DNA of 64,000 bases. It comes from Paludibacteraceae bacterium (GTDB lineage: Bacteria > Bacteroidota > Bacteroidia > Bacteroidales > Paludibacteraceae). A program made the translations under genes and the position numbers. The stretch is taken from assembly GCA_017550335.1 (NCBI GenBank), contig JAFZPM010000003.1:15040-79039 (forward strand). The letters are read 5' to 3'. Position 1 is the first letter of the stretch; each line of letters begins with the position of its first letter. The notes beneath the pieces were generated by a model, which was not told where the DNA came from, ran no database searches, and worked only from the letters and a program-made list of their open reading frames with translations. Below are positions 41,566-56,151 of this stretch, in pieces.

Positions 41566-42471
41566 ATGAAAAAAACAATCAAACTTCTATTGTTGCCGGT
41601 CTTGATGACCCTTTCCCTCGGCAACGCATTCGCCTCCAACACAGAGGCGGACACCATCCTGGCGACGAAACTGGTTCAAACCCCGAAGGTCAATGCGGAT
41701 TCTGCCATCGTGAATGTTGTGAAAGCGACAAAATTAGATATGAATTCCATCTCGGCCGAAGACATTAATGCGACAGGCCGTGTATACTCACCTTTCATAA
41801 TCGCCACTAAGGTTGAGGTAAAGGAATATACCAAAACAAAAGACCTGGATGTCTTCAAGAATCTCACAATTATGCCAAGCGTCAATGCGACAGGCGAGGA
41901 CGCATCCAACCCTACGTTTTTCATGTACTACGGAGGAAGCACCATGTCTAACTGCTTTAGCATCAAATTCGACAACGACACCGTCAAAAAAGACATAGGA
42001 ATGAAACTTTCCACACAATCATACTCGGGCTTTCACCATATCACCTTCGATGCCTCCGCATACAACTTCAAATTCGAAAACGGCAAGGGAACCGGTACCC
42101 TGAATGTGGATGGCAAGATCGTCTGCAAGGAGGAGATCCGCGTGGCGGAGGTCAACACGGACAAGGTGAACTCCAAGGACATCACCGCCAAGAACATCAA
42201 CGTGGAGTTGGGCAATGCGGCCGACTACGTCTTCGAGGAGGGATATGACCTGAAGTCGCTGGGCGAAGTGGAAGAGTACGTGAAGAGCAACAAACACTTG
42301 CCGGGCGTGCCTTCCGCATCGGAGTTCCAAGACAAGGGCATGAACGTCTCCGAGATGAGCAACCTCCTGCTCGAAAAGGTGGAGGAACTCACCCTACACT
42401 TGATCCGCATGCAGAAAGAGATCGACCAACTGAGGGAGGAGAACAACGCCCTGAAGGCAAAGAACAAATAA
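41566..42471 (+). CDS. secreted mosaic-family protein 1 (variable N-terminal half plus the conserved C-terminal 'NAADYVF..HLPGVPSA..LLEKVEELTLH' coiled-coil module)
   Basis: ATG at 41566 gives the signal peptide MKKTIKLLLLPVLMTLSLGNAFA (the track start at 41548 is GTG). The C-terminal ~125 aa are nearly identical to the ORF at 42537 and homologous to the four minus-strand paralogues. Confidence 0.7.
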   Translation: MKKTIKLLLLPVLMTLSLGNAFASNTEADTILATKLVQTPKVNADSAIVNVVKATKLDMNSISAEDINATGRVYSPFIIATKVEVKEYTKTKDLDVFKNLTIMPSVNATGEDASNPTFFMYYGGSTMSNCFSIKFDNDTVKKDIGMKLSTQSYSGFHHITFDASAYNFKFENGKGTGTLNVDGKIVCKEEIRVAEVNTDKVNSKDITAKNINVELGNAADYVFEEGYDLKSLGEVEEYVKSNKHLPGVPSASEFQDKGMNVSEMSNLLLEKVEELTLHLIRMQKEIDQLREENNALKAKNK

Positions 42472-42536
42472 GACCAAGTGATTCCCCACACAAAGTCATA
42501 TGACCTGAATGTACAAACTTCATTAACAACTATTAT

Positions 42537-43349
42537 ATGAAAAAAATAATCACACACTCCATTACGCTTGTCTTGGCGATCCTTTCCATCGGCAACGCAT
42601 TCGCCTCCAACACAGAGGCGGACACTGTTCTGGCGACGAAATTGATTCAAACCCCATCCCTCAAAACAGATCATCTTGAAACAAGTTCTCTTAATGTGGA
42701 AGATATTGACGCAAACGGGATAGTTACAGCAAACACACTACGGGCATATCAGAAAATCAGTATATGTGGTCCTCTTGGTAATCATACCGAAAGAATCTGT
42801 AATCCAAGTTTCAGAATGCAGCTATGCAACACCAATGGAAGCCCCCAATTCTCGATTAACATGAAGGATGATTCCACAACTCTAATCTCCACGGACACAG
42901 GTTATGGGAATTATTATCCTATCCACTATGAAGCATCCGAATTCAATTTCACGTTCGGAACCGAATACCAGAGCACCAAAAAGAAATCCGGTACCCTGAA
43001 TGTGGATGGCAGGATCGTCTGCAAGGAGGAGATCCGCGTAGCGGAGGTCAACACGGACAAGGTGAATGCCAAGGACATCAACGTGGAGTTGGGCAATGCG
43101 GCCGACTATGTCTTCGAGGAAGGATATGACCTGAAGTCGCTGGGCGAGGTGGAAGAGTACGTGAAGAGCAACAAACACCTGCCGGGCGTGCCTTCCGCAT
43201 CGGAGTTCCAAGACAAGGGCATGAACGTCTCCGAGATGAGCAACCTCCTGCTCGAAAAGGTGGAGGAGCTCACGCTGCACCTGATCCGCATGCAGAAGGA
43301 AATCGACCAACTGAGGGAGGAGAACAACGCATTGAAGAATAAGGAATAA
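42537..43349 (+). CDS. secreted mosaic-family protein 2
   Basis: Signal peptide MKKIITHSITLVLAILSIGNAFA. It shares 'SNTEADT(I/V)LATKL(V/I)QTP' and the whole C-terminal module 'GTLNVDG(K/R)IVCKEEIRVAEVNTDKVN...LREENNALK' with member 1. The central ~130 aa are unrelated. Confidence 0.7.
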   Translation: MKKIITHSITLVLAILSIGNAFASNTEADTVLATKLIQTPSLKTDHLETSSLNVEDIDANGIVTANTLRAYQKISICGPLGNHTERICNPSFRMQLCNTNGSPQFSINMKDDSTTLISTDTGYGNYYPIHYEASEFNFTFGTEYQSTKKKSGTLNVDGRIVCKEEIRVAEVNTDKVNAKDINVELGNAADYVFEEGYDLKSLGEVEEYVKSNKHLPGVPSASEFQDKGMNVSEMSNLLLEKVEELTLHLIRMQKEIDQLREENNALKNKE

Positions 43350-43369
43350 AAGCTAATAGCTAAAACATA

Positions 43370-43412
43370 CGGGGCGGGCGGATCACAAGATAATCCGTCC
43401 GCCCCGATTTTT
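43370..43412 (+). terminator. strong rho-independent terminator after mosaic-family gene 2
   Basis: CGGGGCGGGCGGAT (43370-43383) pairs with ATCCGTCCGCCCCG (43393-43406) with one G-U pair, followed by attttt. Confidence 0.85.
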
Positions 43413-54423: not shown

Positions 54424-54435
54424 TTTCTTTCAAAT

Positions 54436-55257
54436 TTATTTCTCCAACATTTCTACTCTGTTCTTTAACTCTTTGTTCTCCTTCTCCAACTCGATCATAT
54501 GGAGGGTGAGTTCCTCAACCTTCTCGAGGAGCAGGTTGCTCATTTGTGACAAGCTCATGCCCTTCTCGGCCATCTCGGCAGCTGAAGGCACGCCAGGAAG
54601 GTGCTTGTTCTCCTTCACGAAACTCTCCACGTCGCTGAGCGAACGCAGGTTGTAGTTCTCGTCGAAAACATAGTCGGCGGCGTTATTCATCTCGACGTTG
54701 ATGTCCCTCGTGTTGATTTGGTCAGCCTTCACCTCGGCAACCTCCAACTCGTTTTGGCACTTGATCTTGCCAGACACTTCGAGGTCGGTGAGGATTTTTG
54801 TTTTGCTGTCGGACAAGTCCATGTAGTTTACACCATACGTGCCAGCGAAATAGTATGTGCTTGCGACAAATGCCAAGGCACCGTAGTTGTGATATCCGGA
54901 CGAAGCGATTCGCATACCTCCACCATCAGGGTTGGAGCTGATCCACAAGCCCGTACGGCTCATCTGATTAGTCGCATAAATGCTTAACCCATTCTCGACA
55001 TAGTTGCTACTTCCTCTAGCGGCGAAACTTCCGGTAGTCGTGAAATTTCCGTTCATCATCGTTTCTCCGTTCACATATAACTTGTACTGGCTGGTTGTAC
55101 TACTTGGAGTAGTTCCAAGAGTCAAATTTCCAGTAACACTTGTTGTCGGATAGCTGTAGATTCCATAACTGCCATTGTACTTCCAAGATTGTGCGTTTGC
55201 GGCACACACAGACATTGCGACACCCATTGTCGCCAAAATCAATTTCTTAAAATCCAT
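54436..55257 (-). CDS. secreted mosaic-family protein 5
   Basis: The internal Met at 55257 gives MDFKKLILATMGVAMSVCAANAQS. It has a distinct Gly/Ser/Thr/Tyr-rich N-terminal half and the C-terminal module 'IKCQNELEVAEVK..NNAADYVFDENYNLRSLSDVESFVKENKHLPGVPSAAEMAEKGMSLSQMSNLLLEKVEELTLHMIELEKENKELK'. Its stop is 12 nt before the C25 gene start. Confidence 0.7.
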   Translation of the reverse strand: MDFKKLILATMGVAMSVCAANAQSWKYNGSYGIYSYPTTSVTGNLTLGTTPSSTTSQYKLYVNGETMMNGNFTTTGSFAARGSSNYVENGLSIYATNQMSRTGLWISSNPDGGGMRIASSGYHNYGALAFVASTYYFAGTYGVNYMDLSDSKTKILTDLEVSGKIKCQNELEVAEVKADQINTRDINVEMNNAADYVFDENYNLRSLSDVESFVKENKHLPGVPSAAEMAEKGMSLSQMSNLLLEKVEELTLHMIELEKENKELKNRVEMLEK

Positions 55258-55383
55258 TTTTGAAAAAATTTTTTTGTGAATAATTAACTGATTCAGAACA
55301 ACCCACCCCATAAATGACCGATAGATTATTTGCATAACACATCATCAAAAATATGGCCAGCGGGGAGAACTGATCCTCTTTTC

Positions 55384-56151
55384 TTACTTCTTCAAAGACT
55401 CCACTTCAGCCTTCAACGCCTTATTCTCCTTCTCCAACTCGATCATGTGGAGGGTGAGTTCCTCAACCTTCTCGAGGAGCAGGTTGCTCATTTGGGAAAC
55501 GCTCATGCCCTTCTCGGCCATCTCAGCGGCGGATGGAACACCTGGCAGGTGCTTGTTCTCCTTCACGAAGCTCTCCACGTCGCTGAGCGAACGCAGGTTG
55601 TAGTTCTCGTCGAACACATAGTCGGCGGCGTTGTTCATGTCCACCGTGATGTCCTCCGTACGGATGCTCTTGGAATTCACCTCCGTCACATTCAACTCGT
55701 CCTTGCAAGACAACTTACCATTGACGATCACATCATTGTCGAAAGTGGCCCTGGTGAACTTGAATACGGCAGGATAGTAAGAATTCATGTAACTGTTGGT
55801 GCTAAACGTCAGGTTATTGTTGCTATCCCAATTGATGGAGAAATGAGGACACATTGAGTGACTGGAAGATATCTTGTTGAGCCAAAGACCTGTTCCTCCG
55901 ATACGACCCGCCTGTGTAACCTCAAACACCGTAGTATACGAACCCAAATTAGAGTCAATACAGTTAATGAAATAACCTGGACTCTGCTGCTGAGTCTGTC
56001 CGCCACTGTTTATCTGTTTATACTTCACAGAAAGACTTGCGGAATGCATGTCTGCCACATAATGACTGTTCTCCGTGATAGGAGTTTGCGCATTCACAGC
56101 GCATGACATGGCAACACCCATTGTCGCCATAACAATTTTTTTAAAATCCAT
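55384..56151 (-). CDS. secreted mosaic-family protein 6
   Basis: Signal peptide MDFKKIVMATMGVAMSCAVNAQT. The N-terminal half is homologous to member 4 ('FSINWDSNNNLTFS'). The C-terminal module is nearly identical to member 5. Confidence 0.7.
   Translation of the reverse strand: MDFKKIVMATMGVAMSCAVNAQTPITENSHYVADMHSASLSVKYKQINSGGQTQQQSPGYFINCIDSNLGSYTTVFEVTQAGRIGGTGLWLNKISSSHSMCPHFSINWDSNNNLTFSTNSYMNSYYPAVFKFTRATFDNDVIVNGKLSCKDELNVTEVNSKSIRTEDITVDMNNAADYVFDENYNLRSLSDVESFVKENKHLPGVPSAAEMAEKGMSVSQMSNLLLEKVEELTLHMIELEKENKALKAEVESLKK

Follow-up and report, generated by a model that had tools for sequence, protein, structure and literature searches.

The window analysed here, 64,000 nucleotides (nt) of contig JAFZPM010000003.1 (positions 15,040 to 79,039) from a rumen-type Paludibacteraceae bacterium, contains six neighbouring genes, m1 to m6, whose products share one layout: a signal peptide, a divergent N-terminal head of ~110-155 amino acids (aa) and a C-terminal module of 115-123 aa. 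The original prediction for this DNA had listed six such open reading frames (ORFs), and all of them are present with the coordinates and strands that it gave. The six proteins match one another in tblastn at E-values of 1e-42 to 1e-96, and the same queries revealed no seventh copy in the window. P0021 (IK131_01125), which lies on another contig and bears the locus-tag prefix of the same metagenome-assembled genome (MAG), has an m1/m2-type module, and the whole genome therefore probably holds more than six family members.

Two of the genes lie on the plus strand. m1 (301 aa, 41566..42471) has a group-1 head and a module at 42100..42468 that comprises a neck with an extra pentapeptide (ITAKN), a DYVF..HLP..PSA..EELTL core and a zipper tail. 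Its public gene call starts at an internal Met at 41605 and gives 288 aa with a truncated signal peptide, which is restored when the gene is read from 41566. m2 (270 aa, 42537..43349; module 42996..43346) follows 65 nt downstream, and a GC-rich hairpin directly 3' of its stop codon (43370..43406, plus strand) is the likely terminator of the m1-m2 unit. The other four genes are on the minus strand together with a gene for a gingipain-like C25 protease of 754 aa (52159..54423), which carries Propeptide_C25, Peptidase_C25 and a type IX secretion system (T9SS) C-terminal sorting domain and retains, by eye, the gingipain-like GHG and VAC motifs. The order in the direction of transcription is m6, 126 nt, m5, 12 nt, C25, 140 nt, m4, 298 nt and m3. 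m6 (255 aa, 55384..56151; module 55387..55731), the first gene in this run, has a group-2 head, as do m4 (273 aa, 51197..52018; module 51200..51559) and m3 (254 aa, 50134..50898; module 50137..50496), while m5 (273 aa, 54436..55257; module 54439..54783) has a class-B head with a GNxxxGTTP..YKLYVNG motif. Since the m5 stop codon is 12 nt upstream of the C25 start, the two genes are probably co-transcribed. The tail of m3 is also present in other strains, and a hairpin directly 3' of its stop codon (50044..50091, minus strand) is likely to terminate the run.

Neighbouring copies had also been predicted to share their 5' leaders. The likeness is real and upstream of the genes it is modest: the m5 leader (55258..55383, minus strand) and the m6 leader (56152..56290, minus strand) are 56-80% identical across ~130 nt and have a ..ATCAGTCATTCATGCGGGCGGGTTGTCCCGAATC.. 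element in common, and m1 and m2 are 51-67% identical across ~50 nt upstream and 89-91% identical inside codons 13-33.

All six N termini read as signal-peptidase-I-type (..NAFA/S, ..VAVA/Q, ..VKA/Q, ..ANA/Q and ..VNA/Q, the slash marking the cleavage site), in line with the cleavable appearance first reported for them. A signal-peptide-like N terminus is found in 226 of 242 family ORFs from other genomes, and just 4 of these 226 have a lipobox-like motif. On this basis, m1-m6 are predicted to be Sec-exported and non-lipidated. Pfam searches of m1-m6 gave no T9SS sorting domain (Por_Secre_tail or CHU_C) and no domain of the YadA-type beta-barrel anchor of trimeric autotransporters; they terminate in a zipper helix. 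The final residue is Lys in five of the six proteins (m1, m3, m4, m5 and m6) and in 114 of 215 homologues (53%, versus a Lys background of 18% in the tail; p ~6e-31), so that it is enriched and not invariant. In Braun's lipoprotein a terminal Lys is joined to peptidoglycan, and the enriched Lys of the family is reminiscent of it.

The module has three parts, namely a short beta neck, a DYVF..NKHLPGVPSA..LLEKVEELTL core and a leucine-zipper-like tail. The neck is built of 5-residue units and differs in length in 5-residue steps; that of m1 equals the m2 neck plus exactly one unit (ITAKN), and two extra units occur in some relatives. Regular heptads, with Leu at position d and I/V/L/N at position a, make up the final 30-40 residues and give a zipper of 4-6 heptads. 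One Cys is invariant in all six modules, as noticed originally, and the neck Cys is kept in 27 of 27 Paludibacteraceae-type members versus 25 of 221 elsewhere. The description of the module as near-identical between copies holds for m1 and m2 (96-100% nt identity) and for the 55-aa DYVF..LTLH core, its nearly invariant stretch, and does not hold for whole modules, which are 63-78% identical to that of m4 at the aa level; the m3-m6 modules show 82-88% nt identity among themselves. A monomeric AlphaFold2 model of m6, built with 109 homologues (mean predicted local distance difference test score, pLDDT, 85), has a beta-sandwich head with strands between residues 43 and 116, an extended and confidently placed neck (residues 125-185), two short helices round the invariant DYVF / NKHLPG / PSA motifs and a single long helix (residues 217-253). 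The module is thus a coiled coil, as predicted, in its zipper tail, and in the model it also includes the neck and a small helical domain. The corresponding monomer model of m5 (pLDDT 61, shallow alignment) was too poor for a fold search.

The heads fall into three groups. Those of m1 and m2, earlier thought unalignable, share 31% aa identity across 150 aa (E 3e-16), and those of m3, m4 and m6, whose distant relationship had been seen by eye, share 24-28% (E 1e-9 to 1e-18). The m5 head stands apart from both groups, as had been proposed, and a homologue search with this head by itself gave no scoring match.

Head and module differ sharply in their divergence. Nucleotide identity is high in the module; past the head/module junction on one side and the stop codon on the other, it sinks to background within a few tens of bases. 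Synonymous divergence (dS, Nei-Gojobori) between head pairs within the genome is saturated, at 1.4 or more, compared with 0.09-0.21 for the m1/m2 module and 0.35-0.62 for the core among m3-m6. Inside the module, the neck groups m3 with m6 and m4 with m5, and the tail groups m3 with m4 and m5 with m6; these conflicting groupings indicate past recombination among the copies.

Two other Paludibacteraceae MAGs (L004 and L005) are syntenic with the window over an RluD-like gene, two family genes, the C25 gene and one family gene. The flanking RluD-like gene has a dS of 0.33 versus L004 and 0.65 versus L005, and the modules at matching positions have comparable values, 0.23-0.51 and 0.63-0.77. With a dN/dS of 0.03-0.09 in every pair except m4 versus L004 (0.22), the modules appear to have been inherited vertically under strong constraint. 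Head dS at the m5 and m6 positions is 1.75-2.30 versus L004 and saturated versus L005, with aa identities of 43-50% and 48-56%, respectively. Compared with L005, the m4 head has diverged vertically (84% identity, dS 0.43). In L004 the m4 position is occupied by an m4-type module on a class-B head (L004_9572), and this module is 97.5% identical to that of m4 over 322 nt, compared with 89% for flanking housekeeping DNA. The same combination of m4-type module and class-B head is found in P0222. Public homologues that share at least 85% module identity with one of the window proteins have heads anywhere between 25 and 100% identical. The C25 protease body shares 34% aa identity with its positional orthologues, with saturated dS, in species whose housekeeping neighbour is 94-98% identical; between species, only the sorting-domain end of the C25 gene aligns at the DNA level. 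Saturated heads on vertical modules, together with the class-B replacement in L004, indicate that heads and C25 body are cassettes between conserved flanks that are replaced by recombination and do not merely drift. The idea of a cassette had been put forward in the original prediction, and the contrast in dS and the combinations in L004 and P0222 sustain it: in the alignment of the window with L004 and L005 most of the heads are not simply vertically diverged.

As to how the heads come to vary, repeats within 41000-57000 cover modules and signal peptides only and provide no template repeat of a diversity-generating retroelement (DGR) for the heads, and head differences are global and not adenine-specific. 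The hallmarks of a DGR are thus not found, although reverse-transcriptase genes were not searched for exhaustively. The window also contains no convincing inverted repeats of an invertible promoter or phase-variation system and no Rfam element. Upstream of m6 there is an AT-rich region of ~1.16 kb (56170-57333, 39% GC) that has no counterpart in L004 or L005, no convincing ORF and no Rfam match, and that is possibly an insertion or a regulatory region.

The module is widespread. A search with a profile of 35 modules retrieved 37,604 clusters at E<=1e-3 and 16,446 at E<=1e-30, the clusters being counted as 50% identity representatives. The main carriers are Bacteroidota of every class, with minor occurrences in Rhodothermales, Balneolaceae, Ignavibacteria, Verrucomicrobiota, Acidobacteriota, Desulfobacterales and one member of the Alteromonadaceae. 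Public product names are almost always "hypothetical protein", with sporadic automatic labels such as "Peptidase S74 domain-containing protein" (P0050, P0377), "tail fiber protein" (P0394) and "DUF4200". This agrees with the original statement that the C-terminal motif is common in uncharacterised Bacteroidota proteins, some of them automatically labelled as tail-fibre-like. Larger homologues have Laminin_G_3 (lectin), LRR, Ig-like, PKD or InlB-B-repeat heads. Since the chains of P0240, P0248 and P0252 hold two or three consecutive neck-plus-module units, which in P0240 follow a Laminin_G_3 head, the module also seems to serve as an internal stalk repeat.

Searches for a known relative of the module found no well-characterised family in Pfam, NCBIfam, PHROGs or the PDB. 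m1-m6 gave coiled-coil noise only in the first three (Chibby, bZIP, SlyX, TolA_bind_tri), ten distant family members had no module match in Pfam even at E<=10, and PDB profile searches with full-length and module alignments returned just GCN4-type zippers and chance matches. Foldseek searches of the m6 model against the PDB and BFVD gave nothing significant (E 0.1-5, TM below 0.25); many trimeric fibres appear in these lists, all of them non-significant, and they are not counted as evidence. A PADLOC match to PbeD (E ~6e-4) was rejected as helical noise, because PbeD is a DndE-type DNA-binding protein (PMC10853773) and the family proteins are secreted. No published description of the family was found under the topics S74/Bacteroidetes, DUF5977/DUF6443, Rhs/T9SS and Paludibacteraceae/C25. 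What is novel here is a domain that has no model in Pfam, NCBIfam or PHROGs, together with a conserved gene linkage of which no published account was found; recombining, fibre-like binding proteins as such are a known kind and are not categorically new.

A survey of gene neighbourhoods in 80 fetched genomic loci showed that the tandem array is typically the family's normal state, a point that the original prediction did not make. Two or more family genes occur in 42 of the 80 loci, nearly always on one strand and tightly packed, with up to 17 copies in Arcticibacter pallidicorallinus (L033), 13 in Sphingobacterium spiritivorum ATCC 33861 (L027), 12 in each of L073 and L075 and 11 in Pedobacter sp. 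MW01-1-1 (L047). Modules inside an array are 47-80% identical, and most head pairs are undetectable by BLAST.

Clustering of the neighbouring genes gave three recurrent partners: C25 proteases, DUF5977/Tc/RHS-like proteins, and genes resembling a type II secretion system or type IV pilus (T2SS/T4P-like). In Bacteroidales, just 0-45 nt separate the family gene from a downstream gene that encodes Propeptide_C25, Peptidase_C25 and usually a T9SS sorting domain too. C25 is the next gene in 15 loci by a strict count, and the arrangement occurs in ~20 of the mapped loci; the pair of family gene and C25 gene is repeated in four loci (L006, L014, L016 and L018). The member directly upstream of C25 has a class-B, or m5-type, head in the window and in L004, L005, L006, L007 and L009. 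In at least 13 loci from Sphingobacteriia, Cytophagia, Marinilabiliales, Balneolaceae, Verrucomicrobiota and Desulfobacterales, arrays are followed by a DUF5977 protein (1000-1300 aa) and/or a SpvB/FG-GAP/TcdB_mid/RHS (or DUF6443) protein of 1200-2600 aa. A GspE-type ATPase gene adjoins arrays in L034, L040, L044 and L069, with secretin- and pilin-like genes in three of them. The cluster in L034 (2755-8933) has Pfam matches to an N-methyl-motif pilin, a GspE-type ATPase and a secretin with an STN domain, and weak ones to a prepilin peptidase and PilN. This T2SS/T4P-like cluster adjoins the arrays and DUF5977/RHS genes, together with MORN_2 immunity-like genes. The conserved operon partner, C25 or, elsewhere, DUF5977 with Tc/RHS-like proteins, is the strongest functional clue to the family and was absent from the original prediction.

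Small ORFs (143-363 aa) lie beside giant SpvB/RHS genes in five of the surveyed loci, at approximately L037:80-535, L059:8070-8501, L063:2675-3172, L080:11180-12271 and L072:10282-10779. At least four of them encode a signal peptide, a single YD-type motif (YDxxGNR) and a T9SS sorting domain, and they could be sorting-domain adaptors that take RHS proteins to the T9SS. A BLAST cluster, c1, that seemed to link small ORFs to C25 proteases was discarded, its shared part being the T9SS sorting domain only.

The module also occurs in viruses. A pattern scan of 2.9 million viral contigs found 18 loci, and a scan of one genome per species gave at least 587 confirmed ones. In L093, L094 and L096 the module forms the C terminus of an 878-aa protein whose gene comes directly after one for a baseplate wedge (phrog_219), and in L097-L099 that of a 612-aa protein located near a major head protein. 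Both viral proteins have HITASGNISASG-type fibre motifs ahead of the module, which takes the form ..PDYVFEP.Y.L.TLPEVE..KHLPG.P..LLEKVEELTLY.. in these contigs. From their sequence and position, the module appears genuinely to end some phage tail fibres, with its main reservoir being cellular. The term fibre-like thus has a factual basis, in that the module stands at the end of proteins encoded in the tail-fibre position.

Taken together, these observations led us to a model in which m1-m6 are binding proteins that are exported, form fibre-like oligomers and carry a C-terminal assembly module of the tail-fibre type, and we give the model as a whole an even chance of being correct. The proteins would assemble into short, fibre-like homo-oligomers, for which a trimer is likeliest by analogy with phage fibres. 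The C-terminal module would be the element of assembly and registration, and possibly of docking, and the N-terminal beta-sandwich head of the AlphaFold2 model would be the part that recognises a ligand. Heads, and the adjacent C25 body, would be exchanged by homologous recombination through the flanking signal-peptide/leader and module sequences, so that different strains may display different heads on one chassis. As family members are co-encoded with secreted effectors, we infer that the fibres could give binding or targeting specificity to those effectors or to the displaying cell. Of the fibre- or adhesin-like family with swappable heads that the original prediction envisaged, the mosaic structure, the exchangeable heads and the fibre-position module are supported; oligomerisation, final location, ligand binding and cooperation with an effector are inferred. 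A bolder version, which we hold only tentatively and consider rather doubtful, is that the family is an undescribed class of interchangeable targeting subunits, in which the module docks to co-encoded effectors and the recombining heads set the target. In Bacteroidales the effector would be a gingipain-like protease; in other Bacteroidota, in Verrucomicrobiota and elsewhere it would be DUF5977 plus a Tc/RHS-like toxin, served by a T2SS/T4P-like exporter. Such a two-part system of fibre plus effector would be derived from, or shared with, phage tail fibres.

Several points weigh against the fibre model. Neither C25 nor DUF5977/RHS genes adjoin the family gene or genes in 33 of the 61 loci with enough downstream sequence, although several of these 33 have another protein with a T9SS C-terminal domain directly downstream, and within the window neither m1/m2 nor m3/m4 has its own partner gene next to it. 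The rules for zippers (Leu at d, beta-branched residues or Asn at a) favour a dimer over a trimer, the m6 model has no significant structural neighbour by Foldseek in the PDB or BFVD, and chains with two or three neck-plus-module units fit a stalk repeat better than a strictly terminal nucleus. The main weakness is the missing route through the outer membrane: sorting domain, lipobox and beta-barrel anchor are all absent, so that no known route is apparent and the proteins could stay in the periplasm.

This lack of a crossing route makes a periplasmic adaptor or chaperone the chief rival, in which the head binds a cargo (C25, DUF5977 or RHS), the module docks on a secretion machine, and the protein never leaves the cell. 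The machine would be the T9SS in Bacteroidales and a T2SS/T4P-like system elsewhere. Such a role would suit a Sec signal unaccompanied by an outer-membrane targeting signal, the tight operon linkage to large secreted proteins, many of them with T9SS sorting domains, and the secretin, GspE-type ATPase, pilin and prepilin peptidase genes clustered by arrays in L034, L040, L044 and L069; the extreme conservation of polar module residues is likewise what a docking surface would require. However, arrays offer 5-17 different heads where just one or two cargo genes lie downstream, the module is also found in phage tail fibres, which are extracellular, and homologues are present in phyla without T9SS. 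Hypervariability and allele replacement are, moreover, typical of exposed proteins and not of periplasmic chaperones, and we consider this explanation unlikely. Hypervariability is also what would be expected if the arrays encoded exported decoys or immunity proteins that neutralise incoming toxins, proteases or phages beside the cell's own effectors. The arrays adjoin RHS toxins and MORN_2 immunity-like genes, and the export signal is compatible with the periplasm, but the arrays stand upstream of the toxin gene and not downstream, and a large conserved module common to all members is not a feature of immunity arrays. With the module used in phage fibres, and with lectin, LRR and PKD heads that suggest outward binding, a decoy function seems highly improbable.

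The phage fibres raise two further explanations. The six genes might be prophage or tailocin remnants, that is, leftover tail-fibre genes without a cellular role, as the few phage fibre genes with the module and the one homologue named "tail fiber protein" could suggest. For the window, this is largely refuted and has very little probability left. ORF annotation and PHROGs identified no phage genes in the window, whose content is otherwise that of an ordinary chromosome, so that the obvious prophage that would have changed the original interpretation is not there; tblastn of the module against 50,697 phage genomes gave no match, and 18 loci in 2.9 million viral contigs stand against at least 587 genomic loci. 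The positional orthologues are under strong purifying selection, and all six proteins have signal peptides, which phage fibres do not have. Alternatively, the module might be a divergent intramolecular chaperone of the S74/ICA type that trimerises upstream beta-structure and is then removed. In endosialidases and the L-shaped fibre of phage T5, a chaperone domain trimerises beta-structure and is then cut off. The module is C-terminal in all six proteins, in most homologues and in the phage fibre-position proteins, real phage fibres thus being included. Two leads point the same way: the two automatic Peptidase S74 labels in UniProt, one of them on a member that is almost module alone, and a resemblance by eye, at motif level, between VVFDDAF.LDAW.DV of K1F and YVFDENYNLRSLSEV. 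Endosialidase, 3gw6 and T5 fibre entries also appear in weak Foldseek lists, but these matches are non-significant (E 0.6-4, TM below 0.2). PF13884 (Peptidase S74) matched neither the six proteins at E<=1 nor ten distant members at E<=10, and a regex search for true S74 domains in the fetched loci found none. Alignment of the module profile with the K1F endosialidase chaperone domain in hhalign yielded just a 15-residue coiled-coil match at 1% probability, and the PDB profile search was empty in this respect too. No Ser or Lys ahead of DYVF is among the invariant or near-invariant columns, where the S-x4-K catalytic dyad would be expected, and the residue preceding the D of DYVF is A, P, S or W. 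In addition, the module may be internal and repeated. With the dyad absent and the PF13884 and hhalign results negative, we have not filed the module as an S74/ICA domain, and a self-cleaving fibre of this type is very unlikely, although a distant, non-catalytic kinship is possible.

For the fibre model, comparison with known systems is instructive. Like the ICA/S74 domain (PF13884, PS51688), the module is a C-terminal part of fibre proteins that follows a beta-rich stalk and ends in helices; it differs in lacking a Pfam match, a Ser-Lys dyad and any profile similarity to K1F, in being repeatable within a chain, and in belonging to small, signal-peptide-bearing, chromosomally encoded proteins. 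Mosaic phage tail fibres and receptor-binding proteins also join a conserved assembly part to an exchangeable recognition part and recombine at conserved junctions. However, the polarity of the family is inverted, with the variable part N-terminal and the conserved part C-terminal, and its genes are cellular, Sec-exported, tandem and linked to proteases or toxins and not to virion genes. The gingipain proteinase-adhesins of Porphyromonas gingivalis resemble the window in the genetic coupling of a putative binding protein to a C25 protease that bears a T9SS sorting domain. Allelic exchange has been described for surface factors of P. gingivalis (PMC5266723), and the variation in both systems is consistent with it. 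In P. gingivalis, the adhesin domains are inside the protease polyprotein and belong to another fold family, whereas the putative binder here is a separate upstream gene without a sorting domain. In Tc toxin loci, a TcA targeting component is encoded upstream of the TcB-TcC cocoon. Arrays and DUF5977 genes in other phyla similarly sit upstream of a giant SpvB/FG-GAP/TcdB_mid/RHS protein, although a TcA homologue is absent and the window itself has no RHS gene. Relative to polymorphic toxin/immunity arrays, the polarity is reversed, and no small gene follows each copy.

The remainder of the window encodes an M48 peptidase, CstA, an MscS channel, GH43+CBM6 and GH5 enzymes, the latter with a T9SS sorting domain, transporters, rubrerythrin, rubredoxin and a 2-hydroxyacyl-CoA-dehydratase-activator-type protein. 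Besides the C25 locus, the window also encodes a protease-trapping protein, a bacterial alpha-2-macroglobulin of 1851 aa (9100-14655). Between m2 and the GH5 gene lies an AAA_14/DUF4143 ATPase gene (43788-45044) with a candidate defence match in PADLOC (PDC-S01, E 1e-28), and the intergenic region between m2 and this ATPase contains an imperfect inverted repeat (43513-43537 / 43712-43736) with CCTAGGGCAACGCCCTA, possibly a small repeat element. Between the GH5 gene and the rubrerythrin gene lies the gene of a 475-aa protein (47683-49110) that has a signal peptide, lacks any Pfam match and is conserved in related strains (477 aa in L002). The 53-aa rubredoxin gene (49872-50033), between rubrerythrin and m3, is called in two other strains (L002 and L003) and not in the public annotation of the source contig (L001).

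In summary, we have identified in m1-m6 members of a family that, if our reading is true, would be among the largest seen here without a Pfam, NCBIfam or PHROGs model, and for which DYVF..NKHLPG(V/I)PSA..LLEKVEELTL provides an easy sequence handle to find such loci. The module would then clearly exemplify how cells can reuse an assembly module of phage fibres, and head exchange would account for recombination hot spots in these genomes. The design of a conserved chassis with a variable head is also attractive for engineering binding specificity. The family would represent a widespread way for Bacteroidota to diversify what they bind, coupled to gingipain-type proteases in rumen and gut Bacteroidales and to Tc/RHS-type toxins in soil and marine lineages, and it would supply the missing specificity component for those effectors.

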